Shown here: piece by piece, positions 1,136 through 37,390 of the stretch
Layout: each line of letters begins with the position of its first letter
Numbering within the stretch: the stretch's first letter is position 1
Virus record (IMG/VR): IMGVR_UViG_2579778866_000003
DNA from: a virus
Taxonomy: Duplodnaviria; Heunggongvirae; Uroviricota; Caudoviricetes
DNA length: 37,677 nt
Strand: one strand, 5' to 3'
Notes under the pieces: model-generated
Told to the model about the DNA's origin: nothing
What the model saw: the letters and a program-made list of their open reading frames with translations, nothing else
The model's database searches: none
Made by a program: the position numbers and the translations under genes

Positions 1136-2812
1136 CTAAGCAACATGTAGTTCATCGTTGGCGGAAGTGGCTGCTTTGCGCTCCTGCTCAATAGATAGAG
1201 ACTCTCTATATTCTTTCGCCTCTGCAAACATTGTCCAGTGGGCGTTGATGTTCATGTCTTCAATAACTGATTTGATTTCTTTTAAATTTACGTTAAAAAA
1301 CTCTTTTCGTGAGTTAATTTTATTGACCTGCTTTTCGTTGAAAACTTTATGCAGATGGTTTTCTAATGATGGTGCATCATCACTATAAATCATCGCATGA
1401 ACATCGAACGAAAAAGGAACACTAGCATCTCCGAGTTCACGAACACGATCAAGTGGTTCAAGGCGGCGTGTCATTCCAATTTTATATACATCTTCGCCAA
1501 ATGAACCAATATTACTAATGATATAGACGTGGCCTGATCTGGTTTGTTGAGCCATAGAAATAGCTCGTTGATTTTTAGCTTCAGCTTCTTCATATTTTAA
1601 CTGTAGTTCAGCTATTTTTTGCTCTAAAGCTAAGCGTTGTTCTTCATTTGCAAGCATAAGTTCTTTCGTTGCTTTATTTATAGCTTGCTGAATAGCTTTT
1701 TCTTCTTTTTCAGCTTCTTTTATCGCTTTTTCATATTCTCTACGAGCTCTTTCCTCTTCACGAAGCTGTTCTTTAATCCTTCTTTGCTCTTCTTTTTCTT
1801 CGAGCATAATTTCATTAACTGCTACACCCCATTTTAGCTCGTTGAGTCTTGCCTGAAGATAGATGTCACTTATTTTTGCGGACCTAAAGGCAGAGCCATT
1901 GTAATTTACTAGTTGAAATGCATCTTTTATTTCTTGGGAAAGTTTTCCAAAATTGTTGTGTTTGACTTTTGATAAAATACTGTCAACTCTTCCATTGAAG
2001 GCATCCAAAACAAAGTTTATGGCAGTATTACGCCTGTTTTGCTCAACATAATCACACGAAGCAGCTTTATTAGTTTTTATTAATGATTTGGTTAACTCTC
2101 TGGCTTTTTGTAATTCCTTGCCTGCATCTGTAAATTCATAATTTTCTGCCAGCTCATCAAGTACACTACGGTTAGGGATGATCCATTCATCACCATAACC
2201 TTCAATTTTATTTTTCATTGATTTTGCAACTGCTTCATATTTTTCTGCAAACTCTTTAGCTTCATATGCTGAACCAGCAATCTCCTTTGCTCTTTCTTCT
2301 GCATCAGAAATAATTTTTACTGCATTGTCATTAGCATTTGAGATTAGCTCATTTGCTTTATTATTAGCATTATCAAGACGTTCTTTGGCTTTCAGGCGTG
2401 CATCGCGAGCGTCTTTGGTGATTGCTATAGCTTCGCTATTAGCGTTGCTTATTGTCATCTGAGCTTGATAATTTGCTTCGTTTACTGTTTTAGCCGCCTT
2501 AATTTGGGCTTCATCTATTTTTTGCTTGGCTATTGAGTCCGCATTTTTTATCTTATTCTCTGCATCCATTACTGCGCTGTGCAATTCTTCGTATTGCCAC
2601 AATGGTGCTGCTCGCCCTTCAAGCTCTGATAATTCTCGTACGGTCTGTGCTAGTTTTTCTTGATTTTCAATCAGTTGGTTAGAAAGGGCTATGTTGTTAG
2701 CTGTCAGGTTATCTATAGCCGCTTTGTGTTTTTTACTTTGTTTAAATAATATTACAGCTAGAACAGGGGCGAGAAATGCTAATAAGAGTATAACGATGGC
2801 AAATGAATTCAT
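1136..2812 (-). CDS. Accessory membrane-anchored coiled-coil protein with C-terminal T5orf172 (GIY-YIG-like) domain, DUF4041-type architecture
   Basis: 558 aa; N-terminal hydrophobic helix (FAIVILLLAFLAPVLAVILF); long Ala/Lys/Glu/Asn-rich coiled-coil; C-terminal GHVYIISNIGSFGEDVYKIGMTRRLEPLDRVRELG motif; AAGGA Shine-Dalgarno 7 nt before the ATG; visibly AT-rich. Confidence 0.75.
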   Translation of the reverse strand: MNSFAIVILLLAFLAPVLAVILFKQSKKHKAAIDNLTANNIALSNQLIENQEKLAQTVRELSELEGRAAPLWQYEELHSAVMDAENKIKNADSIAKQKIDEAQIKAAKTVNEANYQAQMTISNANSEAIAITKDARDARLKAKERLDNANNKANELISNANDNAVKIISDAEERAKEIAGSAYEAKEFAEKYEAVAKSMKNKIEGYGDEWIIPNRSVLDELAENYEFTDAGKELQKARELTKSLIKTNKAASCDYVEQNRRNTAINFVLDAFNGRVDSILSKVKHNNFGKLSQEIKDAFQLVNYNGSAFRSAKISDIYLQARLNELKWGVAVNEIMLEEKEEQRRIKEQLREEERARREYEKAIKEAEKEEKAIQQAINKATKELMLANEEQRLALEQKIAELQLKYEEAEAKNQRAISMAQQTRSGHVYIISNIGSFGEDVYKIGMTRRLEPLDRVRELGDASVPFSFDVHAMIYSDDAPSLENHLHKVFNEKQVNKINSRKEFFNVNLKEIKSVIEDMNINAHWTMFAEAKEYRESLSIEQERKAATSANDELHVA

Positions 2813-2832: not shown

Positions 2833-3429
2833 TTAATTCGAGACTATTGTACTTCTTATACAAGCAACCACTTCAATATCAGAAAATGCACATTCAAAGC
2901 TATTCTCTGCTGTTGTAATTTTAATCATTCCTTTAGGAAGCCTTGTGATTTTTCGAATGGAATAGGTTCCGTCGATATTGATTAACCAGTTTCCATCAAG
3001 TACTTCAGAAAATTTTTGATCACAAATGTATGTGACGAGTCCATCCTGAACAACAATTGGTGATGAAAGGTTTGCAGGAAGAAATGATGAATCGAAGACA
3101 TATGAACCGTCTTCAATCATTTTGCCTGCGGCAAGGCGAAACTTAACAAGCTCTTCTGTAGCTGCTGTCAGCGAGCTTTGCTTAAGGCCTTGTCCGGTAG
3201 TTAACCATTTGAGGGAGGTTCCTGTTTCAAGAGCACATTGGATTATCCAGTCAGCAGGAAATGTATCCCGCAAATACCTGTTCGCTAGTGTGCTTTTTGA
3301 TACTTCCAAGTGATCAGCTAAAGCCTGTCGTGTCGTAAAGCCATAGGCTTCGACTAATCGCTCAATCGCAGCCTTACCACCTTTATTGGGATTTATTTTG
3401 ATCTCACTTGGGTACTTTGATGTTGGCAT
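2833..3429 (-). CDS. cI: CI-type immunity repressor (186 CI-like)
   Basis: 198 aa; N-terminal segment LADHLEVSKSTLANRYLRDTFPADWIIQCALETGTSLKWLTTGQG resembles the phage CI repressor HTH family; divergent from the apl/cII lytic operon. Confidence 0.7.
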   Translation of the reverse strand: MPTSKYPSEIKINPNKGGKAAIERLVEAYGFTTRQALADHLEVSKSTLANRYLRDTFPADWIIQCALETGTSLKWLTTGQGLKQSSLTAATEELVKFRLAAGKMIEDGSYVFDSSFLPANLSSPIVVQDGLVTYICDQKFSEVLDGNWLINIDGTYSIRKITRLPKGMIKITTAENSFECAFSDIEVVACIRSTIVSN

Positions 3430-5352: not shown

Positions 5353-5579
5353 TGGCTGATGCAATGGATCTCGTACAGCAGCGCGTTGAAGAAGAACGCC
5401 AGCGCCATATCCGTGCAGCCCGTGCCAAATCACCGGGCGTGTCACGCGTACTTTGCATTGAATGTGAAGCGCCAATTCCGCCAGCACGACGCCGCGCCAT
5501 TCCGGGAGTGCAGCTTTGCATTACCTGTCAGGAAATCGCAGAACTGAAAGGCAAACATTACAACGGAGGTGCTGTATGA
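5352..5579 (+). CDS. TraR/DksA-family C4 zinc-finger protein
   Basis: 75 aa with CIECEAPIP ... CITCQ (CxxC-N17-CxxC) pattern; AGGAG Shine-Dalgarno. Confidence 0.7.
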   Translation: MADAMDLVQQRVEEERQRHIRAARAKSPGVSRVLCIECEAPIPPARRRAIPGVQLCITCQEIAELKGKHYNGGAV

Positions 5580-6433
5580 GCACTATCCTGAAATGGGCGG
5601 GAAATAAAACCGCCATTATGCCAGAACTGAAAAAATACCTTCCTGCTGGCCCGCGACTGGTTGAACCTTTCGCGGGTTCCTGTGCTGTGATGATGGAAAC
5701 GGATTATCCCAGCTATCTGGTTGCGGATATTAATCCTGATTTAATCAACCTCTATAAAAAGGTTGCCGCTGATTGTGAATCGTTTATATCTCGCGCCAGA
5801 GTTTTATTTGAGATCGCAAACAGGGAGGTGGCTTATTACAACATAAGGCAGGAGTTTAACTGCTCAACTGAAATTACTGATTTCATGAAAGCGGTATATT
5901 TCCTGTATCTCAATCGTCACGGTTACCGTGGTTTATGTCGCTATAACAAGAGCGGGCATTTCAACATTCCCTACGGTAATTATAAAAATCCGTATTTCCC
6001 TGAAAAAGAACTTCGCACATTTGCAGAAAAAGCCCAGCGAGCAACGTTTATCTGCGCCAGCTTTGATGAAACGCTGGCGATGTTGAAGGCGGGAGATGTG
6101 GTGTATTGCGATCCGCCATATGACGGTACGTTTTCCGGCTATCACACTGATGGTTTCACTGAAGATGACCAGTATCACCTGGCATCCATTCTTGAACATC
6201 GGTCATCAGAAGGACATCCGGTCATTGTTTCTAACAGTGACACATCCCTGATCCGTTCGCTGTATCGCAATTTTACTCACCACTATATCAAGGTTAAACG
6301 CAGCATCGGTGTGGCAACTGGCGAGGGTAAATCAGCAACAGAAATCATTGCTGTTTCCGGGCCGCGCTGCTGGATGGGATTTGATTATTCGCGTGGCGTG
6401 GATAGTTCTGCCGTGTACGGAGTACGTGCATGA
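5576..6433 (+). CDS. dam: DNA adenine methyltransferase (Dam-like)
   Basis: [12 protein letters not shown]-terminus, FAGSCAV motif I and VYCDPPY (DPPY) motif; GGAGGT Shine-Dalgarno; start overlaps the TraR-like stop. Confidence 0.85.
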
Positions 6434-8844
6434 GTCATGCCGATATGAACAACTGCTGCGGCTTTAACGAGGCTGCCGCAGCATTCTCATGGAACAGCCC
6501 GAAAAAGGCCATTAACCCTTATCTGGACCCGGCGGAAGTTGCGCCGGTTTCTACGCTTTCAAACCTGATCACTCTGTACGCTGCCGATAACGAGCAGGAA
6601 CAGTTGCGCCGCGAGGCACTGAGTGATCAGGTCTGGGAGCGTTATTTCTTTAATGAATCACGTGATCCTGTCCAGCGCGAAATGGAGCAGGATAAGCTCA
6701 TTAGCCGGGCAAAGCTGGCGCATGAGCAGCAGCGTTTTAATTCAGACATGGTCATTCTGGCGGACGTCAACGCCCTGCCTTCCCATATCAGCAAGCCGCT
6801 GATGCAACGTATTGAATACTTCAGCAGCCTGGGCAGGCCAAAGGCTTATTCCCGCTATTTACGTGAGACGATTAAGCCATGTCTGGAACGACTGGAGCAT
6901 GTACGCGACAGTCAGCTATCTGCATCTTTTCGCTTTATGGCAAGCCATGAAGGGCTGGACGGCCTGCTGATCCTGCCTGAAATGAGTCAGGATCAGGTGA
7001 AACGCCTGTCCACCCTGGTAGCTGCGCATATGAGTATGTGCCTTGATGCAGCTTGTGGTGATTTGTATGCCACCGATGACGTTAAGCCAGAAGAAATCCG
7101 CAAGACATGGGAAAAGGTGGCAGCGGAAACCCTGCGTCTGGATGTCATCCCACCTGCGTTTGAGCAACTCCGTCGGAAAAGAAACCGCCGTAAACCCGTG
7201 CCCTATGAACTCATTCCGGGTTCGCTGGCGCGTATGTTGTGCGCCGACTGGTGGTATCGGAAATTATGGAAGATGCGTTGCGAATGGCGGGAAGAGCAGT
7301 TGCGCGCTGTTTGCCTGGTCAGCAAAAAAGCATCTCCTTATGTCAGCTATGAAGCCGTGATGCATAAACGTGAGCAGCGCCGTAAGTCGCTGGAGTTTTT
7401 CCGTTCTCATGAACTGGTGAACGAAGACGGCGACACGCTGGACATGGAGGATGTGGTAAACGCCAGCAGCAGCAACCCTGCGCATCGCCGCAATGAGATG
7501 ATGGCCTGTGTTAAAGGTCTGGAGCTTATTGCGGAAATGCGCGGTGACTGCGCCGTTTTCTACACTATCACCTGTCCGTCGCGTTTCCATTCCACGCTAA
7601 ATAACGGCAGACCAAACCCGACCTGGACAAACGCGACGGTAAGACAAAGCAGCGATTATCTGGTCGGCATGTTTGCTGCATTTCGTAAGGCGATGCACAA
7701 AGCCGGGTTGCGCTGGTATGGCGTGCGGGTGGCTGAGCCGCATCATGATGGCACAGTTCACTGGCACCTGTTGTGTTTCATGCGCAAAAAAGACCGCCGT
7801 GCCATCACTGCATTACTGCGTAAGTTTGCCATCCGTGAAGACCGCGAGGAGCTGGGCAATAACACTGGGCCGCGCTTTAAGTCTGAGTTGATTAACCCGC
7901 GCAAAGGAACGCCGACAAGCTACATCGCGAAATATATCAGTAAGAACATTGACGGTCGTGGTCTGGCTGGCGAGATCAGCAAGGAAACGGGTAAATCTCT
8001 GCGTGATAACGCTGAATACGTGAATGCCTGGGCGTCTCTGCATCGTGTTCAGCAATTCCGCTTCTTTGGTATTCCGGGGCGTCAGGCTTACCGTGAACTT
8101 CGCTTGCTGGCTGGTCAGGCGGCAAGGCAACAGGGTGACAAAAAAGCAGGTGCGCCGGTACTGGATAACCCGCGTCTTGATGCCATTCTGGCTGCTGCTG
8201 ATGCTGGTTGTTTTGCCACCTACATCATGAAGCAGGGCGGCGTACTGGTTCCCCGTAAATATCACCTCATCAGAACCGCTTATGAAATCAACGAAGAGCC
8301 GACCGCCTATGGCGATCACGGCATTCGTATTTATGGCATCTGGTCACCCATTGCAGAGGGCAAGATCTGCACCCATGCAGTGAAGTGGAAAATGGTTCGT
8401 AAAGCCGTTGACGTTCAGGAGGCGGCAGCCGACCAGGGCGCTTGCGCCCCTTGGACTCGTGGCAATAACTGTCCCCTTGCTGAAAATTTGAACCAACAGG
8501 AGAAAGATAAATCAGCTGATGGGGACATCAGAACGGACATTACCCGCATGGATGACAAGGAGTTGCACGATTACCTGCACAGTATGAGCAAAAAAGAGCG
8601 CCGGGAACTGGCTGCAAGGTTACGCCTGGTTAAACCGAAACGGCGTAAAGACTACAAACAGCGAATTACAGACCATCAGCGACTGCAGCTCGTCTATGAG
8701 CTGAAGTCCAGAGGATTTGATGGTAGCGAGAAAGAGGTCGATTTACTCCTTCGCGGCGGCAGTATTCCGTCAGGAGCAGGCCTGCGTATCTTCTATCGGA
8801 ACCAGCGTTTGCAGGAAGATGATAAGTGGCGGAACCTGTATTAA
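6430..8844 (+). CDS. A: Replication initiation endonuclease (P2 gpA-like)
   Basis: 804-aa protein at the P2 A position; start overlaps the dam stop. Confidence 0.8.
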
Positions 8845-8996: not shown

Positions 8997-9185
8997 ATGC
9001 AGGACTATTTTTTGGAGTCTTTGAAGCTCCAGCGCATTGATTTTTTTCTTAAGCTTGTAGCGACTAGTGAGTGTAGTGATGAAGAGAAGGGGCTGGCTTT
9101 GCAGTGGGTTTCTGAACTAACAGATGAACTCATGGCAAAAATCAGAACCCACGAATACAACCGCTCAATGGATGTCATCAGTTGA
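8997..9185 (+). CDS. Small SOS-controlled protein, possible N-terminal part of a Tum-like antirepressor
   Basis: 62-aa ORF with strong GGAGGAAAG Shine-Dalgarno; directly downstream of the LexA box and upstream of the DinI-like ORF. Confidence 0.5.
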   Translation: MQDYFLESLKLQRIDFFLKLVATSECSDEEKGLALQWVSELTDELMAKIRTHEYNRSMDVIS

Positions 9186-9196
9186 GGTGACTTTTT

Positions 9197-9430
9197 ATGC
9201 GCATTGAAATAATGATCGATAAAGAGCAGAAGATTAGCCAGTCTACCCTGGACGCCCTTGAATCCGAGCTTTACCGCAATCTGCGCCCCCTGTATCCCAA
9301 AACGGTAATTCGTATCCGCAAAGGTAGCTCTAACGGTGTGGAACTTACCGGATTGCAACTGGACGAAGAAAGAAAACAAGTGATGAAAATTATGCAGAAG
9401 GTGTGGGAAGACGACAGCTGGCTGCATTAA
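9197..9430 (+). CDS. DinI-family protein (Tum/DinI-like)
   Basis: 77 aa, MRIEIMIDKEQKISQSTLDALESELYRNLRPLYP ... KVWEDDSWL matches the DinI family pattern; GAGGTG Shine-Dalgarno. Confidence 0.75.
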   Translation: MRIEIMIDKEQKISQSTLDALESELYRNLRPLYPKTVIRIRKGSSNGVELTGLQLDEERKQVMKIMQKVWEDDSWLH

Positions 9431-9620: not shown

Positions 9621-10031
9621 TTACAAAACATCAACAACTTCAAACTCTTCCATAATCAGCTCCATATCATCAGAAAAGTAACCTTCACATGTAAAAAATC
9701 GTTGATGCTCTCTCTGCCAATATTCAAGACTCAAATCGCCTTCACCTTCCTTGCGAGCGAACTCGGCAGTAACATCACAAAAACGCACCAGTCGCATCGA
9801 CACCAGCCGGGTCACGCATACCGGTACATCTTGGCCGTTAAGGATGATGTTATAGCTCCCAATCCTTGGGGCAAACTCTTCCTTCTGGTAAGAGGCATAA
9901 GAGCCGCAGGAGGCCGTTTTAATTCCTTTTTTGATAAGCGCTGCAAGCTCGTTAGCCAGTTCAGGGCTGTCGCCCATTTGCCAGGCATTCGCGTCCGGAT
10001 ATTTCATCTTTAATTCATCAACCGTAACCAT
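9621..10031 (-). CDS. ASCH-domain protein (PUA-like fold)
   Basis: 136 aa; N-terminal WQMGDSPELANELAALIKKGIKTASCG resembles the ASCH domain signature; encoded antisense to flanking genes; AT-rich. Confidence 0.55.
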   Translation of the reverse strand: MVTVDELKMKYPDANAWQMGDSPELANELAALIKKGIKTASCGSYASYQKEEFAPRIGSYNIILNGQDVPVCVTRLVSMRLVRFCDVTAEFARKEGEGDLSLEYWQREHQRFFTCEGYFSDDMELIMEEFEVVDVL

Positions 10032-10313
10032 TACAAGTCCTTTCTAATTGTAAAAATAGATAAATAGCTGAGCATTAATTGTTCAAATATTAACAGTGAT
10101 GCTCTCTTGTTAGTATCATAGTCCGTTTCTCGTTCACAGTGGGCCTTCAGTTTTTTGTCTGCTTTGTGCCAAAAACAGACGTCTAAATATCCTATTGTCA
10201 GTTATAAAAAGTGATGAGTGTTCTACATATTAAATTTACAGAGGCAGAAACTCCGTGTTTAAATACGGTTCTTTCCACCCAATAAGCATTAACAACTTAA
10301 GGACCCCATAAAA

Positions 10314-11276
10314 ATGCCAGTATTAGACTTCAAAGAAATACCAGAGGCTCATAAAGCAACAGGGCTGCAAGACACATTTGAACTTTTTTCTCGCGACTTC
10401 TTAGCTTTTCTGGGATATAAAATTATATCTGACCCAGATAGAGGGGCTGACGGTGGGGTTGATATTATAGCCGAAGAAAAAAGGACTGGTGTCGGCGGGG
10501 AAACAATTATCCGTTGGTTGGTAAGCTGTAAGCATAAAGCTCATAGTGGAAATTCAGTTAATCCAGGAGATGATGCAAATATTACTGATCGAGTAATAGC
10601 GAATAACTGCCAAGGATTTATCGGGTTCTATTCAACTCTTGCTAGTGCAGGTCTGTCTGGAATACTTGACGGGTTGAAAGGACGAATTGAATTTCAGGTT
10701 TTCGATAAAGAGAAAATAGAGAGGGAACTTTTACACTCTTCCAGAGGATTGGAAATTGCCGAAAGGTACTTCCCAAAGTCGTTATCTGAGTGGAAAACAG
10801 AAAACCCCAAACCCGCAAGAATATTTTCCGATGAACCTAGCTTAAAATGCAAAGTTTGCAAGAAAGAGCTTCTGTCTCAAGACGACAAGGGAATTATCAC
10901 TATATGGCAAAGAATCCGCACCGACTACGAAAAAGAACCAGAGTATAATGAACATATTTTTTGGACGTGTCGAGGCAACTGCGACCAAGCACTCCGGCAG
11001 TATGTTAGAAAACAAACAAACAATGGCCTTATTGATGGCTGGGAAGATATAGCTGATGTAATGATGCCAACTGTGTTTATAAAATGGGTCATGACAATAA
11101 TGAATGAGTTAAGATCTGGGACCCTATATTCAGATGAGGCATTTGACGAACTCAAGACATTTTTGATCAATATTTACCCATTTGCATGTCGTCATCTCAC
11201 CGAAAAAGAAAAAGAAAGGGTTAAATCATTAATGATGATACCTTCGTATCTTGGCGGCATGAACTATGAAGGTTAA
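10314..11276 (+). CDS. Mrr-cat-like (PD-(D/E)xK) nuclease domain fused to a Cys-containing C-terminal domain of unknown function
   Basis: 320 aa; N-terminus FLAFLGYKIISDPDRGADGGVDIIAEEK ... RWLVSCKHK resembles the Mrr restriction-endonuclease catalytic domain; C-terminal half has CKVCKK and CRGNCD; AT-rich. Confidence 0.65.
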   Translation: MPVLDFKEIPEAHKATGLQDTFELFSRDFLAFLGYKIISDPDRGADGGVDIIAEEKRTGVGGETIIRWLVSCKHKAHSGNSVNPGDDANITDRVIANNCQGFIGFYSTLASAGLSGILDGLKGRIEFQVFDKEKIERELLHSSRGLEIAERYFPKSLSEWKTENPKPARIFSDEPSLKCKVCKKELLSQDDKGIITIWQRIRTDYEKEPEYNEHIFWTCRGNCDQALRQYVRKQTNNGLIDGWEDIADVMMPTVFIKWVMTIMNELRSGTLYSDEAFDELKTFLINIYPFACRHLTEKEKERVKSLMMIPSYLGGMNYEG

Positions 11277-11352
11277 GAGAGGGGGCGTTAGCCATCTTCG
11301 AGAGTATTCAGTAAGGATTTGAAGAGAGAATATATAAATAGACCATTTATAC

Positions 11353-11397
11353 CTGAACAGAAGTCATATTGAGCTAGACGTTTCTGTTCAGTTTTTT
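11353..11397 (+). terminator. Rho-independent terminator downstream of the Mrr-like gene
   Basis: Perfect 10-bp inverted repeat CTGAACAGAA (11353-11362) / TTCTGTTCAG (11382-11391) followed by TTTTTT. Confidence 0.5.
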
Positions 11398-11767
11398 AGT
11401 GTCTTCATTATCATATATCGCTCGAAAAGTCTCCCCGAAAACCAAGAGCATTTCCTTAATTGAAGTTGCTGTTGTCACCGCTGCGCATCCGTAACAGCTT
11501 ACATGCTGCTTCGCTCTGTTTCAGTGCCAAAAAGCAAGGAGTTAATGTCCGCTTTTCACTCACAGCGGACTTTCATCTTTGTAAACCCGTATGATTCGCT
11601 TTTCAGCGGTCATTCAGATACGGATTTACGCTTCCCTTGGCTGTGCATGACTATGCTGCATGAAATCGCATGATCGATTGAGGATCGTTTTTGCAGAGAC
11701 CTGCTAGAACTGGCGAGCTTTTACTCATGTCATGCAGGTGCATGAAAACCACTGCATAAAGCGGGCA

Positions 11768-11793
11768 GGCGTGGCGGGGATACGATTGCGCGC
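11768..11793 (+). other. Candidate cos site (cohesive-end region)
   Basis: GGCGTGGCGGGGATACGAT followed by TGCGCGC; the first 13 nt and the following TGCGCGC match my recollection of the P2/186 19-nt cohesive end and its flank; located before Q as in P2. Confidence 0.4.
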
Positions 11794-11867
11794 AGAAGAT
11801 TATTATTGGTACACTGTCGGTGACTCTCTACGCAGATCTTACACATTAATTTCTAATGGGGCATGCT

Positions 11868-12668
11868 ATGATCTTTCTAAGTCATAATCACCGTGACAAA
11901 AGGTTTGTAAGTGTTATAGCGGAAAAACTAGCAGATGTTTATGGGCGTGATAACGTATTCTACGATTCTTGGTCTATCCAACCCGGAGAGGGTATTATTG
12001 ACAAGATGAATTTAGGAATGGAGAATGTATCGTTCTTTTTCTTTTTTGTCACAGAAAATAGTTTGGCAAGTAACATGGTAAAAATGGAATGGCAAAATGC
12101 TTTAATTAAGGCATCGTCCGGGAAGTGTAAATTTATACCAATACGTTGCCAGAATATATCCTTGCCTGCTCTGCTTACTCAAACGCTATATATTGATCTT
12201 TATTCGTATGGGATCGATGTGGCAATAAGACAAATTATAGATGTCATTAATCAACAAAATACGTATATTCCTAATCCTGAGAAGTATTCAAACCTCTCCT
12301 ATGATATTAAGGATGGTGATGGGGGTAAGATAGTGAAATTATCAGCAATGGATTTTTTAGAACCAATTGCTGATTTTATGATGATTATGGATAATACAAT
12401 TAAGCATGATGATGTTGTTGTTATGGTCAATGGAGAAAGCACATTCACTCAGGGGTTTATTGAAAATGCATCTTTAGAAAATGGTATGAAAGTAAGTGGT
12501 GCCACTGTTGGCCTAAATCGGGGGTTAACACCAACGATGCCAATGTATGTTTCTCTTAGGTTAAAGGATGGTTCACCTTTGAATATATTTGCGGTGCTAC
12601 ATCGAGTAAGTACCGAGCGTTATGCTCCTATACCACATAAAGCCGATGATGCCTTTAGAGTAAAATAA
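11868..12668 (+). CDS. TIR-domain protein with C-terminal domain of unknown function
   Basis: N-terminus IFLSHNHRDKRFVSVIAEKL ... VFYDSWSIQPGEGIIDKM ... FFFFFVTENSLASNMVKMEWQNAL fits the bacterial TIR pattern; alternative ATG at 11856; AT-rich; sits between cos and Q. Confidence 0.7.
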   Translation: MIFLSHNHRDKRFVSVIAEKLADVYGRDNVFYDSWSIQPGEGIIDKMNLGMENVSFFFFFVTENSLASNMVKMEWQNALIKASSGKCKFIPIRCQNISLPALLTQTLYIDLYSYGIDVAIRQIIDVINQQNTYIPNPEKYSNLSYDIKDGDGGKIVKLSAMDFLEPIADFMMIMDNTIKHDDVVVMVNGESTFTQGFIENASLENGMKVSGATVGLNRGLTPTMPMYVSLRLKDGSPLNIFAVLHRVSTERYAPIPHKADDAFRVK

Positions 12669-12712: not shown

Positions 12713-13741
12713 TCATAAACAATAGGATGAAAATGCAATAACTTTCTCACCCAGCCAATGGTTTAACTCCTCCATGCGTTTCTGTAATGGCAAAAGTTCA
12801 TTGCGCACAAACACATTTGCGGCCTTCTCCACATCCCCAAACCCTCCAACATTATTAGGCATAATCCCCATCATTTGCGGCGGCACGCGGTGCGCAGCCA
12901 TCATGTCATCGCGGCTCACGTTCTTGATATTCAAAAACTCATCCTTCGCCGCCACCTCTGACAACGGGATAATCTGAAGCCCGTCCTTTTTGCCGTTAGG
13001 CGAGTACATAAACAGGTTGCGGAAGTTACCCGGACCTTTGGCACTTTTCATTGCATTGCGGAGGTTGTTCACGTCCTCCTGGTTCTGCGCAGCATCGGTC
13101 ATGTACATGATGAAGCCTGCATGACTACCGTTAATGTAATACTTGCGGCGGAACAGCGTGGCGGACTCATTGAGCAGGGCGGACGGAATGGCAGAAAGAT
13201 AGCCGGGCAGGCCGTAGATCTCCTGGTTAATGTCCGGTTCCATCAGATGAAAAATGCTGCCTTTCGTGAACTGATACGGCTGGGTTGTCATACCGTATTG
13301 CACAAACCAGTAGGTATCCAGGTCTAACCCGCGTCGGGTGTATTTTGCCAGAGCAGGCTCAAGGGCGATAACTTCACCGAAGCGGTTCGTGCGTTTCTCC
13401 AGGTAGGCGTTACCAAATACCAGATAGTCCTGCACAAAACGTGAAAAAGCCTGCTGGCTGAGCAGCGGGTGAGGGATGTAGGTACTGGTCAGAATGTTGC
13501 ATTTCACCGCAATTGGTGAACTGTGATGCACGGCGGCGCGGAAGGTGCGCGCCAGTCCGTCAAAGCTTACTGGCGGCTCATACCAGCGATCTGTCTGTAC
13601 GCATTCCACATAGTCCAGCAGTTCTCGGCGGTCCAGAACAGGAACGGGATCGCCGAAGCTGAATGCTTCGGCTGTAGTTTGACTTTTAAGCTGGATCTGT
13701 TTCGTCGCCGCAGCGCGGTTCTTCTTACTCTTTCCCATCAA
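12713..13741 (-). CDS. Q: Portal protein (P2 gpQ-like)
   Basis: 342 aa; first gene after cos on the minus strand; overlaps the P stop. Confidence 0.85.
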   Translation of the reverse strand: MMGKSKKNRAAATKQIQLKSQTTAEAFSFGDPVPVLDRRELLDYVECVQTDRWYEPPVSFDGLARTFRAAVHHSSPIAVKCNILTSTYIPHPLLSQQAFSRFVQDYLVFGNAYLEKRTNRFGEVIALEPALAKYTRRGLDLDTYWFVQYGMTTQPYQFTKGSIFHLMEPDINQEIYGLPGYLSAIPSALLNESATLFRRKYYINGSHAGFIMYMTDAAQNQEDVNNLRNAMKSAKGPGNFRNLFMYSPNGKKDGLQIIPLSEVAAKDEFLNIKNVSRDDMMAAHRVPPQMMGIMPNNVGGFGDVEKAANVFVRNELLPLQKRMEELNHWLGEKVIAFSSYCL

Positions 13742-15504
13742 AAAATCTCCACAATATTGCTGGTATTGGCGGACTCGCCTTGCAGCGGTTCGTTAAACAG
13801 TGCGTGCATCGTTGCCCAGGCCAGATCCGCATGGCTGGCTTCTTCGCTGCGGCTGGCTTCATAGGTCGGGCGGTTGCCACTGGCGGTGGTGGAGCGACGG
13901 ATTGCCATAAAGGACTGCGCTATGTCGGTGTGTCCGGCGTCAAACTCCAGACGGCGGTGGCTGATAATGTCGTAGGCCTTGAGTACCAGGGCGTTTTTAA
14001 CGTTGGGGTTGTAGACAAACTCCCGGACGGCAGGAAAGAATGCTTTCACGTTCTCGTAAACCCCGTGGCCGACGCCAGTTGAGTCGATGCCGATGTATGT
14101 CACGTTGTACTGTTCGGTCAGTTTTTTGATGGCGTCAGCCTGGGCGCGGAAGTCCATCCCGCGCCACTGGTGACGCTCAAGAATGCGGAACTTACCGCCC
14201 GGCACGGCTGGCGGTGCCACCACCACGCACCCGGCGCTGTCGCCGTTCTGCGTACCTTTTGCCGGGTCATAACCGATCCACACCTCGCGCCAGCCAAACG
14301 GGCGCAGCGCCAGTGCATGAAAGTCGGTCCAGACTTCCCAGCTGTCCACCATGCACGCCTGCAGCTCGCTGAGCGGGAACACGGACGCGAGATCGTCCAC
14401 AAACTCGCACATCAGCAGGTTCTGGTATTCGTCCGGGCTGTACTCCATGCGCAACTGGTCAAGGTCGAACAGGTTACAGCCGCCGCGCACCGCATCTTCC
14501 ACGGTGACTATCTGGCGGTACTGCCCGTCTGCGCACAGCAGGCCGGGGGCCAGATTGCGGTGGGACAGGTCGATGTCCACCTTATCGGCTTTGTTGCGCC
14601 CTCGGTTGAACAGCGCACCGGACCAGAACGGATAAGCACTGTGTGTCAGGCTGGATGGCGTGGAAAAATAGGTTTGTCGCCATTTTTTGTGAATAGCCAT
14701 ACCGGAAGCCACTTTGCGCAGCTCCTGGAATTTCGGTATCCAGAAATATTCATCCAGATACAGGTTGCCGTGGTAACTCTGGGCCGTGCGGGCATTGGTG
14801 CCGAGGAAGTAAAGCGTGGCCCCGTTAGGAAGCACCATCGGATCGCCTTTCAGCTCCACCTCCACTTCTTTGGCGAAGTCGATGATGTACTGCTTAAAGA
14901 CGTGGGCCTGTGCCTTACTGGCGGAAAGGAAAATCTGGTTACGCCCGGTAAGCAGGGCGTCAATCAGGGCTTCACGGGCAAAGTAAAAGGTCGCGCCGAT
15001 CTGGCGTGACTTCAGCAGATTGCGGATGCGGTTGGTTTTTCCGGCTTCCCACCAGTGGCGCTGGTAGTTGAACATGGAGGAATGGAAGATTTCTTCCAGC
15101 TTCTCAATCTGCTCATCGGTGAAAACATTCTTTTCCGGCTGACGGCGTGGGCCTTTGTTGCGGTTGGCGACGTTTGGGTTTAAGTCGGCTTCGTTGCCGC
15201 CATTGTTAAACTTGCCGATCCGCGCGTGGCGCTCCGACTGGCGCGCCAGCAGGTCAATCTCTTTGAAATCTTTCCCTTCTTTGTGCTCCTTCATGATGAG
15301 CTGGCAGTAGCGTGCGGCGGTGGTGAGCTGCATCTGATCCAGCGGCCCATAGTCACCCCACTTGTCGCGTTTTTTCCAGCTGTGAACGGTTGCAACTTTC
15401 TCGCCCAGCATTTCAGCTATGCGGGCTACGCGGTATCCCTGAAAGTACAGCAGCATGGCCTGCCGACGGGGATCGAGATCTGCGGGTGTCAGTGTGGTGT
15501 TCAT
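13738..15504 (-). CDS. P: Terminase large subunit (P2 gpP-like)
   Basis: 588 aa; divergent from O with a shared intergenic promoter region. Confidence 0.85.
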   Translation of the reverse strand: MNTTLTPADLDPRRQAMLLYFQGYRVARIAEMLGEKVATVHSWKKRDKWGDYGPLDQMQLTTAARYCQLIMKEHKEGKDFKEIDLLARQSERHARIGKFNNGGNEADLNPNVANRNKGPRRQPEKNVFTDEQIEKLEEIFHSSMFNYQRHWWEAGKTNRIRNLLKSRQIGATFYFAREALIDALLTGRNQIFLSASKAQAHVFKQYIIDFAKEVEVELKGDPMVLPNGATLYFLGTNARTAQSYHGNLYLDEYFWIPKFQELRKVASGMAIHKKWRQTYFSTPSSLTHSAYPFWSGALFNRGRNKADKVDIDLSHRNLAPGLLCADGQYRQIVTVEDAVRGGCNLFDLDQLRMEYSPDEYQNLLMCEFVDDLASVFPLSELQACMVDSWEVWTDFHALALRPFGWREVWIGYDPAKGTQNGDSAGCVVVAPPAVPGGKFRILERHQWRGMDFRAQADAIKKLTEQYNVTYIGIDSTGVGHGVYENVKAFFPAVREFVYNPNVKNALVLKAYDIISHRRLEFDAGHTDIAQSFMAIRRSTTASGNRPTYEASRSEEASHADLAWATMHALFNEPLQGESANTSNIVEIF

Positions 15505-25388: not shown

Positions 25389-25832
25389 ATGAACGAATAT
25401 GTTTATAGCGCAAGGCATAATGCTTTTTTCCCTGTGGATATGATTGATAAATATAAATCAGAGGGATGGGATTTATCAGATGCTAAAGAGGTGAATCAAA
25501 ATATTATCAGTGAATTTATGGCTGAACCGCCACAAGGAAAAATCCGTATTGCCGGAGGTGATGGGCAGCCCGCGTGGGCAGATATTCCTCCACCCACGCA
25601 TGAAGAACTTATTGAAATTACTGAATCAGAAAGACAGCTACTAATTAACCAGGCCAACGAATACATGAACAGTAAGCAATGGCCCGGCAAAGCCGCTATT
25701 GGTCGTCTGAAAGGTGATGAACTGGCGCAATATAATTTGTGGCTGGATTATCTGGACGCACTGGAGCTGATCGATACTTCCGGTGCGCCAGATATTGAAT
25801 GGCCTACGCCTCCGGCAGTTCAGGCCAGATGA
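25389..25832 (+). CDS. G: Tail fibre assembly protein (P2 gpG-like)
   Basis: ATG at 25389 after AAGGG; C-terminus overlaps the convergent tfa' gene. Confidence 0.75.
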   Translation: MNEYVYSARHNAFFPVDMIDKYKSEGWDLSDAKEVNQNIISEFMAEPPQGKIRIAGGDGQPAWADIPPPTHEELIEITESERQLLINQANEYMNSKQWPGKAAIGRLKGDELAQYNLWLDYLDALELIDTSGAPDIEWPTPPAVQAR

Positions 25833-26406
25833 CATCCGGCGCGGTGCTGGTATCTGTTGCCGTCACCGCGTCAATGTAATCCAGCACAGCGTTAAGTCTG
25901 GTTGTTTCTGCCTGCGTCAGTTTATGTCCGGCCTGCAATTTCAGTTGAATCAGACTGATGGAAGCCATTGCTGCATCAATCAGTGACTGGCGCTGTGCTT
26001 CTGCCGCGTCTACTGCGGCACCGTGTTGTGCCTCAGTATCTGTCACCCATTTTTCACCATCCCATTTATCGTATGGCGTTAACGGGGCGATAGTGGTTGT
26101 TTCTTCGGGGTAATCACCCGGAGTTGTGATTTCTTTTGCGTCTCCCGTTTCGGTGTTATAGACGATTTCACCGCGATGGTCTGGCACATATTCCCATGAG
26201 TTTAAATCCATCGAACGGCAGATAGCATAACCCGCCTTATGTGTGCCAGGGGCATCTAAACAGGAATATGCAGGGATACCGACGCCAACAGCAAGATATT
26301 CATTTGAAGTGGAAATATATTCTCGAGTTTCACCATCATAGTTATAGACGGTAATATTCCCTGCTTTGGTGGCGATAATCTCGCTATTTAATATGGCGTT
26401 ATCCAT
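25804..26406 (-). CDS. Alternative tail fibre assembly protein (tfa')
   Basis: 200 aa on the minus strand inside the invertible segment; ATG overlaps the stop of the alternative fibre segment. Confidence 0.7.
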   Translation of the reverse strand: MDNAILNSEIIATKAGNITVYNYDGETREYISTSNEYLAVGVGIPAYSCLDAPGTHKAGYAICRSMDLNSWEYVPDHRGEIVYNTETGDAKEITTPGDYPEETTTIAPLTPYDKWDGEKWVTDTEAQHGAAVDAAEAQRQSLIDAAMASISLIQLKLQAGHKLTQAETTRLNAVLDYIDAVTATDTSTAPDVIWPELPEA

Positions 26407-26939
26407 TATGCAGCCCTCACAATATAGTTAAATGCAATATTCCTTGGTCGAACCCTAAAACCAGCCCCTGCGCCTGCTCCAGTTGGTGGCAATTCGATAG
26501 AGGGGTATGCTGTTGCAGAGGAATATAAACCTTCACGGGAATCATAATCAGTCGTCATATAGTTAGACGTATTATCAGAAACAGTTTCTGTCGGTCTGGT
26601 AACCAGACGATAAGAGCCAGTGGTTGGTGACCTGACCAGACCAAAACTTTCAACCAGAGTGGCTTTTTGAAAGCTTAATAATCCCCGACCACTGTCAGCT
26701 CCACGCCCGTCATCCCAGCCACGAATAAACTCACCACGTAAATCAGGCAATTTATTTGTCGGATAAGCCTTTGCCAGTTCCGGGTATTCTTCAGCAGAAA
26801 AAGCTGCACCGTTGCATTTCAGCCAGCCTGTCGGCGGAATGGCTGAAGGCCATGGAACAGGTACACCAACAGGTAATGCCGAACCTTCTCCCAAACCAAC
26901 GTTTAAGAAAATGCAGCGATTACGGCTAACTGGCATCAT
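26406..26939 (-). CDS. Alternative tail-fibre C-terminal variable segment (Sv'-like), promoterless in this orientation
   Basis: Contains DLRGEFIRGWDDGRG-type fibre-tip motif; its 5' end reads through the right hix-like site with the same GLGE junction residues as H. Confidence 0.6.
   Translation of the reverse strand: MMPVSRNRCIFLNVGLGEGSALPVGVPVPWPSAIPPTGWLKCNGAAFSAEEYPELAKAYPTNKLPDLRGEFIRGWDDGRGADSGRGLLSFQKATLVESFGLVRSPTTGSYRLVTRPTETVSDNTSNYMTTDYDSREGLYSSATAYPSIELPPTGAGAGAGFRVRPRNIAFNYIVRAA
26886..26911. other. hix/gix-like recombination site (right)
   Basis: TTCTCCCAAACCAACGTTTAAGAAAA; first 13 nt identical to the reverse complement of the left site. Confidence 0.5.
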
Positions 26940-26960: not shown

Positions 26961-27533
26961 ATGATCATGCTTATTGGCTATGTACGCGTGTCAACAAATG
27001 ACCAGAACACCGATTTGCAACGTAATGCGCTGAACTGCGCGGGATGTGAGCGGATTTTTGAGGACAAAATCAGTGGCACTAAGTCCGACAGACCGGGGCT
27101 TAAAAAACTGCTCAGGACACTATTGGCAGGAGACACGCTGGTTGTCTGGAAGCTGGACAGGTTGGGGCGCAGTATGCGGCATCTTGTTACGCTGATAGAA
27201 GAGTTGCGCCAGCGTGGTGTGAATTTCCGAAGCCTGACTGACAGTATTGATACCAGTACCCCAATGGGCCGTTTCTTTTTTCATGTCATGGGTGCCCTGG
27301 CTGAAATGGAACGCGAACTGATAGTTGAACGTACCCGGGCAGGGCTGGCTGCAGCTCGTGCTAAAGGCAGAGTAGGTGGACGCCGTCCTAAGTTGACCAC
27401 TGAACAGTGGGCACAGATTGGACGTTTACTCGAGGCCGGAGAATCAAGACAGCGTATTGCACTGATTTTTGATGTAGGCGTTTCTACCATTTATCGAAAA
27501 TTTCCGGCAAATAAGAGCAATAAATCTCCCTGA
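26961..27533 (+). CDS. Serine DNA invertase (Hin/Gin/Cin/Pin family)
   Basis: 190 aa; MLIGYVRVSTNDQNTDLQRNAL ... VVWKLDRLGRS ... GRFFFHVMGALAEMERELIVERT closely matches Hin/Gin; C-terminal HTH. Confidence 0.9.
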   Translation: MIMLIGYVRVSTNDQNTDLQRNALNCAGCERIFEDKISGTKSDRPGLKKLLRTLLAGDTLVVWKLDRLGRSMRHLVTLIEELRQRGVNFRSLTDSIDTSTPMGRFFFHVMGALAEMERELIVERTRAGLAAARAKGRVGGRRPKLTTEQWAQIGRLLEAGESRQRIALIFDVGVSTIYRKFPANKSNKSP

Positions 27534-35057: not shown

Positions 35058-36743
35058 TTATCCTAATCCTGGCCATACCATGACGATGATTGTCCCTGCC
35101 AGCGTCAGCAGGACGTTGGCGATTGCATAGGTGCCCGCATAGCCCAGCGCCGGGATGTTACTGCGAGCTGTATCACTGATGATCTCCATTGCCGGCGCGC
35201 AGGTGCGTGCGCCCATCATTGCGCCGAACAACAGTGCGCGGTTCATTCGCAATACATAAGCACCGAACAAGAAACAGATAACCACTGGCACAAGACTGAC
35301 AATCAATCCGGCAATCAACATCTGACCGCCAATCGCGCCCAGGCCGTTATTAATACCGCTACCGGCGCTCAGACCAACGCCTGCCATAAACACCATTAAG
35401 CCGAACTCTTTCACCATGCTTAATGCACCCTGCGGAATGTAACCGAAGGTCGGGTGGTTAGCGCGCATAAAGCCCAGCATAATTCCGGCGAATAACAACC
35501 CGGCAGCGTTCCCCATGCCGAAACTGAATGTGCTGAACTGGAAGGTGATCATCCCGATCATCAGCCCAATAACAAAGAAGGCGCAGAATGCCAGCAAGTC
35601 AGTGACCTGGCTGTGAATCGAGATAAAGCCGATGCGATCGGCGATGGTTTTTACGCGACGGGCATCGCCGCTGACTTGTAAAACGTCACCTTTGTTAAGC
35701 ACGACGTTGTCATCTATCGGCATCTCAATCTGGCTACGAATGACGCGGTTAAGGAAGCAACCGTGATCGGTCAACTTCAGTTGTGCGAGACGTTTGCCCA
35801 CGGCGTTATGGTTTTTAACGACCACTTCTTCAGTGACGATACGCATGTCGAGAAGGTCACGATCGAAAACTTCTTTGCCGTTACGGAAGCTGGGATCGAG
35901 TCGTGCGTGGGCGTCGGGATAGCCTACCAACGCTATTTCATCGCCCATTTGTAGCACAGCATCACCGTCTGGATTCGCCAGAATCCCGTTACGTCGAATA
36001 CGTTCAATGTAGCAGCCAGTTTGTCGATAAATACCCAGTTCACGCAGATTTTTGCCGTCGGTCCAGGCCACCAGCTCCGGGCCGACGCGGTAGGCGCGGA
36101 TCACCGGTAAATAAACCTTACGGTTGGCATCAGTGTCCAGGCCACGTTCGCGGGCGATTTGCTGGGCGCTGGTCTGTAAGTCCTGATGCTGCAATTTCGG
36201 CAAGTAACGCGCACCAACAATCAAACTCACCAGACCGATTAAATAGGTTAAGGCATACCCGAGGCTCAGATTATCCAGTGCCAGTGAGAGCTGCCTGCTT
36301 TCCATGCCGGAATGACGCAGTGTATCGCCAGCACCGACCAGAACCGGTGTCGACGTCATAGAGCCAGCTAACATACCGGCCGTCAGGCCAATATCCCAGC
36401 CAAACAGCTTACCTAACCCTAAGGCGATCACCAGCGCACTGCCAACCATCACCAGTGCTAACATTAGGTAATTTTTCCCATCGCGAAAAAAAATGGAAAA
36501 AAAGTTCGGTCCGGCTTCGACCCCGACGCAGAAAATAAACAGCATAAAGCCAAGATTAAGCGCGTCGGTGTTAATGCTGAAATGTTGTTGGCCTAATAAC
36601 AGCGATACGACTAAAACGCCAATGGAATTACCCAGTTGGATCGAACCAAGTCGTAATTTCCCGAGACATAGCCCAAGCGCGAGGACCACAAATAATAACA
36701 GAATGTAATTCCCATTTAACAATTCGGCGACGTTTATATTCAC
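35058..36743 (-). CDS. ybjL: Putative transport protein YbjL (host)
   Basis: 561-aa polytopic membrane protein matching E. coli YbjL in size and in the ybjL-ybjM-grxA neighbourhood. Confidence 0.9.
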
Positions 36744-37012
36744 GGAGGCTAACTTCTTGTTTACTAGTAAGCTGTTGAAAGAAATGGTAATTTACGATAA
36801 TGTTTTTTACCAGAATTCAGGGCGCAGATTCATTCAGCGCACCTAAAAGATAGTAAAGTAACAATATATTTTACTAGTGTAATCACATTAGGTATCAACG
36901 GCTATATGAATTGCGTTGGCCTATATTAGCATGGAATGCGAAGCGGCTTTATCTTACTGAACGCCACACTGGCGAAAAATGTGTTCGATAGACGCAGTGT
37001 CAGGAGGAACGA

Positions 37013-37390
37013 GTGAAACATAAACAACGTTGGGCGGGGGCAATCTGCTGTTTTGTCCTCTTCATTGTGGTGTGTCTTTTTCTGGCGACGCACATGAAAG
37101 GCGCTTTTCGGGCTGCCGGGCATCCTGAAATCGGTTTGCTATTTTTCATTCTTCCTGGTGCAGTTGCCAGCTTCTTTTCACATCGTAGAGAAGTCCTGAA
37201 ACCTCTGTTTGGCGCAATGCTGGCGGCACCCTGTTCGATGCTCATTATGCGGCTGTTTTTTTCACCGACGCGCTCATTCTGGCAAGAGTTGGCATGGTTA
37301 TTAAGTGCGGTGTTCTGGTGTGCGCTGGGGGCATTGTGTTTCTTATTTATCAGTAGTTTGTTTAAACCACAGCACAGAAAAAATCAATAA
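37013..37390 (+). CDS. ybjM: Inner membrane protein YbjM (host)
   Basis: 125-aa hydrophobic protein between ybjL and grxA. Confidence 0.8.
   Translation: MKHKQRWAGAICCFVLFIVVCLFLATHMKGAFRAAGHPEIGLLFFILPGAVASFFSHRREVLKPLFGAMLAAPCSMLIMRLFFSPTRSFWQELAWLLSAVFWCALGALCFLFISSLFKPQHRKNQ

Follow-up and report, generated by a model that had tools for sequence, protein, structure and literature searches.

A mobile single-gene Mrr-type nuclease with a Cys4 C-terminal domain at a cargo site of a P2-like prophage: a candidate anti-phage protein

Introduction

In nucleases of the Mrr/MspJI type a PD-(D/E)xK catalytic domain is coupled to a partner domain, and it is with these enzymes that the protein described here is best compared. 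In MspJI and AspBHI, an SRA-like reader of modified cytosine is N-terminal and the nuclease C-terminal, and the catalytic motif contains Gln. Mrr of Escherichia coli K-12 (EcoKMrr) has a winged helix (Mrr_N) ahead of its catalytic domain (Pfam Mrr_cat) with the motif residues Q-A-K, and in FokI, too, the nuclease comes last. The reverse, nuclease-first order is found in the Avs-type effector–sensor proteins; in Avs4 an N-terminal Mrr nuclease is combined with a STAND ATPase and a repeat sensor, the matched chain having 1540 residues. CapRelSJ46 joins an enzymatic N-terminal domain, a RelA/SpoT-like pyrophosphokinase, to a small, zinc-finger-like regulatory C-terminal domain within one prophage-borne polypeptide. 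Defence proteins typically combine a conserved effector with partner domains that are swapped. Finally, Epona and Divona, two single-gene Mrr_cat fusions from integrons of Vibrio cholerae, have been reported to be anti-phage (Darracq et al., bioRxiv 2024.07.02.601686); the partner of the first is a holin-like domain with two transmembrane segments and that of the second is DUF4365/crr6.

Here we describe a gene in the 37,677-nt stretch IMGVR_UViG_2579778866_000003 ("the window", to which all positions refer). Its product of 320 residues resembles the Avs-type proteins in having the nuclease first, the opposite of the order in MspJI, AspBHI, EcoKMrr and FokI, and lacks the STAND ATPase and repeat sensor of Avs4. 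The partner is a Cys4 module with a helical sub-domain in place of the SRA-like reader or the winged helix, and the catalytic motif reads S-C-K, with Ser where MspJI and AspBHI have Gln and EcoKMrr has Q-A-K. The likeness to CapRelSJ46 is one of possible logic only, its enzymatic domain being unrelated to a PD-(D/E)xK nuclease. Like Epona and Divona, a relative of the protein with Mrr_cat is encoded by a V. cholerae integron cassette, but the partners of those two differ from the Cys4 domain, and the combination of Mrr_cat with such a domain is not described in the text of Darracq et al. (bioRxiv 2024.07.02.601686). A true homologue is ORF1 of the Z region of P2-EC67 (CAD54909, "putative lysogenic conversion protein"), which is 38% identical over 92% of the length, shares all four cysteines and the catalytic motif and is likewise P2 cargo; it is located in the other variable region of P2 (Z/fun), with annotated inverted repeats on its flanks.

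We propose, at roughly even odds (about 0.5), that the gene encodes a DNA endonuclease that needs no partner gene, spreads horizontally as a single-gene unit and serves a P2/186-like prophage as anti-phage cargo, with the C-terminal zinc domain giving target recognition or licensing. The defence role is inferred from context and architecture, which make the gene a candidate.

Results

The prophage and the cargo region between gene A and cos

The window is a complete P2/186-like prophage (Table 1). An open reading frame proposed in the initial annotation was recovered with precisely the same ends, and the protein is identical to WP_016248371, "MULTISPECIES: restriction endonuclease [Escherichia]", which in RefSeq is labelled just "restriction endonuclease". 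The gene was also said to be AT-rich, and its GC content of 39.9% lies well below the 50.9% of the window and the 52–57% of the flanking core genes. The terminator attributed to it is found downstream as an inverted repeat followed by six T residues. The hairpin has a predicted folding energy of −15.2 kcal/mol with a z-score of about −2.5 (−2.49), and it escaped a simple scan because its loop is long.

Table 1 Features of the window
Feature	Position	Strand	Remarks
Integrase	1–1053	-
PD-Lambda-1 homologue	1136–2812	-	558 aa; DUF4041 + T5orf172/MUG113; PADLOC model E = 3e-120
CI repressor	2833–3429	-
D12-class N6-adenine DNA methyltransferase (Dam-like)	5516–6433	+	overlaps start of gene A
Replication gene A	6430–8844
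62-aa ORF and DinI-like gene	8997–9430
ASCH-domain protein	9621–10031	-	136 aa; divergent from nuclease gene
Minimal mobile cassette	10165–11578	+	upstream region, gene and terminator
Solitary nuclease gene	10314–11276	+	320 aa; ATG start; AAGGA 10 nt upstream
N-terminal Mrr/MspJI-type PD-(D/E)xK nuclease domain	10314–10802	+	residues 1–163
C-terminal domain	10806–11273	+	residues 165–320; Cys4 zinc-site-like module, then helical sub-domain
(AAAC)3 tetranucleotide repeat	11009–11021	+	within nuclease gene
Probable intrinsic terminator	11353–11397	+	hairpin 11353–11391 with 10-bp stem and long loop, then T6
cos site	11768–11786	+	GGCGTGGCGGGGATACGAT; within conserved 152-bp block (11643–11795)
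TIR gene	11856–12668	+	270 aa; TIR_2, E = 1e-22
Portal gene Q and terminase P	12713–15504	-	Q, 12713–13741
Hin-like serine invertase	26961–27533		adjoins tail-fibre C-terminus and assembly ORFs on the opposite strand, 25804–26939

Since gene A, cos and Q flank it as mapped, the nuclease gene lies in the variable region between A and cos, the tin/old region, as had been supposed. A search for the exact 19-nt cos of P2 with up to three mismatches found no site in the window, and cos was placed by alignment with the left end of P2, with five mismatches: 14 of the 19 bases match the annotated P2 cosL, and the TGCGCGC that follows is identical. The 152-bp block around it is common to P2-like phages of Yersinia, Salmonella, Klebsiella and E. 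coli. The content of the A-to-cos region varies among related prophages. The divergent ASCH gene recurs with the nuclease gene in E. coli P2 hotspots and is absent at the STEC island described below and in all contexts outside E. coli. Among the paper texts searched, the accession WP_016248371 appears in none; its only occurrence is in Table S5A of Rousset et al. (2022), where it is listed as "Mrr_cat" at the P2 hotspot together with ASCH, DinI and a HIRAN protein, with no assay.

The PD-Lambda-1 homologue between the integrase and the CI repressor occupies a third defence-cargo site. The segment 25804–27533, with the Hin-like invertase and the tail-fibre ORFs, looks like an invertible host-range segment. 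Past the end of the prophage, host genes for an Asp-Al_Ex/TrkA_C transporter and YbjM (35058–37390) form the chromosomal flank.

The TIR gene sits between cos and Q, where P2 itself has only about 170 bp, and the C-terminal half of its product matches no assigned family. Because cos lies between them, packaging places the nuclease and TIR genes at opposite genome ends. P2-like prophages elsewhere in E. coli have the TIR cassette without the nuclease and with different cargo on the A side, either DUF4145 or hypothetical proteins; the TIR gene is probably a single-gene defence candidate in its own right that occupies a second insertion site, between cos and Q. The 580 bp that separate the two genes, which are on the same strand, would also fit a Thoeris-like pair, in which the TIR protein makes a signal that the zinc domain of the nuclease senses, as would the DUF4062 gene, presumably for a TIR-like protein, that stands just upstream of a homologue in Acinetobacter baumannii. 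The context data, that is, independent cassettes and rare co-occurrence, effectively exclude such a pair, however. Cos separates the two cassettes; the nuclease gene is found alone, beside HIRAN, or in P2 prophages that have retron Ec67 instead of the TIR gene; the TIR cassette has other companions; and a single one of 5426 complete E. coli genomes shows the pairing, with a broken nuclease gene. A TIR neighbour is missing from most homologues, and we consider the pairing highly improbable.

A self-contained mobile cassette

BLAST comparison of related loci, from which the cassette borders were drawn, showed that the upstream region, gene and terminator form one block of 1414 bp, which is 98.8% identical in an unrelated STEC genomic island (NZ_CP027312). 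The initial annotation had taken the protein to act from a single gene, and the contexts agree with this: the gene stands alone in the STEC island, in an integron and on a plasmid, with no conserved partner among its neighbours. The V. cholerae homologue (65% identical) is, besides an inserted IS, the sole gene between two VCR repeats, and an Acinetobacter homologue is cargo of a 4.9-kb plasmid. Homologues in A. baumannii are found at a prophage end and also just downstream of the DUF4062 gene mentioned above. In Sinorhizobium meliloti the homologue is on a plasmid and adjoins a TrlF ATPase gene, with a caspase-family gene nearby. The Providencia homologue follows the tail-fibre genes of a P2-like prophage, a site that we read as the Z/fun hotspot of P2. 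Neighbours of about 221–222 residues in three taxa were considered as a conserved partner and rejected, as they are not homologous; comparison of the neighbours of homologues in different taxa gave no homology between them.

These contexts bear on whether the protein could be the endonuclease of a type II restriction-modification system, with the host protected by the prophage-borne Dam-type methyltransferase. The gene for that enzyme, of the D12 class, lies some 4 kb upstream; it belongs to the prophage early region and is left out by the cassette boundaries. There is no methyltransferase in the cassette, or beside the homologues in the integron, plasmid and island contexts. Without a methyltransferase in the integron cassette or on the 4.9-kb plasmid, a type II enzyme encoded there would be lethal. 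No methyltransferase is near the STEC-island copy either, but its allele is frameshifted. Context thus effectively excludes a type II system with the Dam methylase of the prophage as its partner, and we give this explanation next to no weight.

More distant loci give a mixed picture. When 132 neighbours at 26 distant loci were compared with PADLOC and Pfam models, some matched mad3/mad8, AriA, PtuA, HEC-01A, DrmA/D, PDC-S14 and nSTAND3; the counts are per family rather than per protein and have no control set, and are used qualitatively only. Many of the other neighbours are housekeeping genes, and since many distant homologues lie among such genes, enrichment in defence islands appears only moderate.

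The protein itself has no significant match to any model in PADLOC-DB v2.0.0; the best, PDC-S02 (E = 0.004), covers about 36 residues of the Mrr motif only, and the same holds for 36 family members. Neither NCBIfam nor PHROGs has a family for it. It was not found in the available part of the DefensePredictor supplements, and Mrr is not mentioned in a 2026 NAR paper on P2/P4 hotspots.

A nuclease without a defence role that hitch-hikes in variable regions, either as a selfish, homing-type element or as an enzyme of DNA repair or recombination, would account for the absence of a defence database model, for the many distant homologues that stand alone among housekeeping genes and for the annotated inverted repeats that flank the P2-EC67 copy. 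It accounts less well for the recurrence of the gene in defence-cargo sites, namely the two P2 hotspots, the integron cassette and a prophage end by tail and lysis genes. With unrelated insertion sites, the gene has no single homing target, and a housekeeping repair enzyme would not be expected to be patchy, rare within a species and often inactivated. We therefore hold a non-defence role to be unlikely.

The N-terminal nuclease domain

The initial annotation assigned an Mrr-type nuclease to the N-terminal 100 residues. The assignment stands, on both the fold and the Pfam match, while the domain is longer, at about 163 residues. Mrr_cat (PF04471) matches residues 20–82 with 27.1 bits against a gathering cut-off of 21, and is matched by all 36 aligned family members. 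Structure prediction and HMM comparison, which had been suggested as checks, agree on a nuclease fold. An AlphaFold2 model built with 54 homologues (mean pLDDT 87.6) has a restriction-endonuclease-like α/β fold in this domain, of which 138 residues align with AspBHI. In hhalign against E. coli K-12 Mrr, E23 pairs with E172 and D50 with D203, that is, the helix Glu and the Asp of the GDGG(I/V)D motif, and the alignment is weak past this first motif (E = 0.16). Sequence searches of the PDB chains with the protein and with the family profile gave no match.

The catalytic-like motif is D50-X20-S71-x-K73, which we take to be the MspJI spacing D-X20-(Q/S)xK with Ser replacing Gln. This serine is the middle triad position throughout the family, and nuclease activity is plausible though not guaranteed, because it sits where Mrr and MspJI have Gln and classical enzymes have D or E. 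From the sequence, E23 and E55 could stand in for the missing acidic or Gln residue. Cfr10I and NgoMIV are active with an S-x-K variant in which the acidic residue is relocated.

The same serine, which departs from the (D/E/Q)xK pattern of the triad, raises the question of whether the fold is catalytically dead and only binds nucleic acid, as a regulator or as the adaptor of some other effector. One distant relative of the N-terminal domain weakly matches NA-iREase1 ("NACHT-associated inactive REase") with E = 9e-4, below the cut-off of that model. Conservation argues otherwise: E23, D46, D50, E55 and the S71-C72-K73-H74 stretch are kept in at least 95% of 154 full-length sequences. With the active S-x-K precedents, and no conserved partner to act as the true effector, we judge a dead nuclease to be very unlikely.

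The C-terminal domain

Since the nuclease domain extends to about residue 163, the C-terminal part comprises about 155 residues rather than the 200 first assigned to it. It indeed belongs to no known family. Residues 165–320 taken alone fold confidently, with a pLDDT of 90.9 and a pTM of 0.83. In the model, a loop with C179-x2-C182 is followed by a β-hairpin ending at C219, a helix that starts from C223, a strand and four helices. The CxxC and CxxxC pairs that had been pointed out are thus C179-x2-C182 and C219-x3-C223, and both are kept across the family. Eleven positions are conserved in at least 95% of the 154 full-length sequences, C179, C182, C219, C223 and D224 in the zinc-site-like module and W243, D245, D248, P252, N264 and R293 in the helical sub-domain.

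The four cysteines of the model have a zinc-site-like layout that resembles a treble clef or TRASH domain, and we regard them as a predicted zinc site. Profile comparisons give weak hints in the same direction, with Arc_trans_TRASH and DUF7576 for a stand-alone copy of the domain (P0222, see below) and NosL, MerB and L24e in the comparison of the domain itself. No Pfam family, PDB structure or viral structure in BFVD matches it. It has no similarity to known readers of modified bases; no SRA-like modified-cytosine-binding domain was found in the protein, and by Pfam the Mrr_N winged helix is absent, the catalytic domain being N-terminal and its partner unrelated. The domain is acidic overall (pI about 5.8), and its parts differ, the zinc sub-domain being mildly basic (pI 8.8) and the helical part acidic (pI 4.7).

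A widespread family with exchanged and stand-alone domains

At 90% identity, the homologues of the full protein fall into at least 1200 clusters, nearly all of about 320 residues. A genome scan placed full-length relatives in Proteobacteria, Nitrospirota, Cyanobacteria, Bacteroidota, Verrucomicrobiota, Firmicutes, Chloroflexi, Acidobacteriota, Planctomycetota, Rokubacteria and Paceibacterota. In distant members the nuclease domain is 48% identical and the C-terminal domain 30–37%. A search of all representative proteins with the C-terminal domain returned 329 clusters; among the listed matches of full-length size, nearly all carry the same nuclease domain, an exception being P0256 (311 aa). 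The nuclease domain is less exclusive. The same Mrr-type N-terminal domain, with the "WLVSCKH" motif, is joined to at least three other C-termini of 150–320 residues that have no Pfam match (loci L046, L052 and L054–L059). One recurring alternative C-terminus has the motif "WAANYKDYF...RPRA.YFD.KH".

The Cys4-plus-helical domain also exists by itself, in proteins of about 140 residues (L017, L021, L060 and L063). One of these genes, P0222 (L017, 2298–2714), belongs to a phage and is flanked by a rinA-like activator gene and terS; the others are in bacterial variable regions or beside an integrase. The copy at L063 is a deletion derivative, because a nuclease-domain remnant lies directly upstream; no such remnant was found at the phage locus or at two bacterial loci. 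The stand-alone domains may serve as decoys or inhibitors; alternatively, they may have a role of their own.

Intact and frameshifted alleles in E. coli

The gene is rare in E. coli, being present in 23 of 5426 complete genomes. Contraction of its (AAAC)3 repeat to (AAAC)2, seen in alignments with two related loci (L002 and L064), causes a frameshift and yields a 244-residue allele without the helical sub-domain. The window carries the intact allele. In a large protein collection, the intact protein was found on 619 contigs and the 244-residue form on at least 1000; most E. coli copies are frameshifted at the repeat. The STEC-island copy has the (AAAC)2 frameshift and W217S, and the sole complete genome with the P2-plus-TIR arrangement of the window has (AAAC)2 and a stop at R93. 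The occurrence of the (AAAC)2 allele in two genomic contexts reflects either recurrent slippage or a shared ancestral lesion. Contraction of the repeat could be a form of on/off switching of a costly gene.

Discussion

We have described a solitary mobile gene at a defence-cargo site that encodes a domain of the Mrr/MspJI fold joined to a new Cys4 domain. In the function that we propose, the C-terminal zinc domain would be a specificity or licensing module. It would recognise a feature of invading nucleic acid, with modified DNA or DNA marked as non-self in another way the most likely target, and recognition would bring together two nuclease domains, each with a single active site, to cut the DNA as in FokI and MspJI. 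The protein would then be like a type IV enzyme in its logic, with the DNA of the host spared through the missing cue and not through methylation.

The main competitor is a fused toxin–antitoxin or abortive-infection sensor with the logic of CapRelSJ46, in which the zinc domain restrains the nuclease until a phage protein frees it, host and phage DNA are degraded and the infected cell is killed. The initial annotation had named both abortive infection and modification-dependent restriction without choosing between them. We see the toxin–antitoxin or sensor model as a serious alternative, though a doubtful one. Direct recognition of non-self DNA is favoured over pure autoinhibition because the closest catalytic domains are those of modification-dependent enzymes, because the core of the C-terminal domain is invariant across very distant hosts and because alleles truncated so that the C-terminal helices are lost but not the nuclease are tolerated and decay afterwards. 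Such truncations, the common frameshift alleles, would be unexpected if the C-terminal domain were the sole brake on the nuclease, and a core shared unchanged by Proteobacteria, Firmicutes, Chloroflexi and CPR bacteria is easier to reconcile with a universal chemical cue than with a phage protein that evolves fast. Nor does the protein contain an ATPase or a module for oligomerisation. The reversed domain order, the acidic C-terminal domain and the swappable C-termini point the other way and count against direct recognition.

For the anti-phage nuclease as a whole, we count in favour the fold and motif, the new Cys4 domain, the autonomy of the cassette, the joining of the nuclease domain to other C-termini, the PD-Lambda-1 homologue and the TIR gene of the same prophage, the match of some distant neighbours to defence models, the TrlF and caspase-family genes near the S. 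meliloti homologue and the persistence of loss-of-function alleles. The rarity of the gene in E. coli and its mostly inactivated copies count against it, as do the serine of the catalytic motif, the sub-threshold NA-iREase1 match of a relative, the domain order, a C-terminal domain that is not basic and does not resemble modified-base readers, and the housekeeping surroundings of many distant homologues.

A wider reading, which we offer tentatively and with much less assurance than the proposal itself, is that the C-terminal domain represents a new class of non-self sensor for a cue that is not read by SRA, PUA-like or winged-helix domains. The proteins would then form a widespread, unnamed family of single-gene defence systems that extends from Proteobacteria to Firmicutes, Chloroflexi, Cyanobacteria and CPR, and the stand-alone copies of the domain, in phages and on mobile elements, would act in counter-defence, as decoys poisoning the nuclease.

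In kind the finding is familiar, one more candidate with a nuclease and an uncharacterised domain in a hotspot already full of such genes. The intact allele of the window is an object for testing it, with the frameshift alleles, the swapped C-termini and the stand-alone C-terminal domains as natural controls. If the protein is protective, it would stand for a compact (320 aa) and phylogenetically very broad defence family that current detection tools have overlooked, with a sensor domain unrelated to any solved structure. The target of the zinc domain could then reveal a new way of discriminating foreign from host DNA, or provide a modification-specific nuclease reagent.
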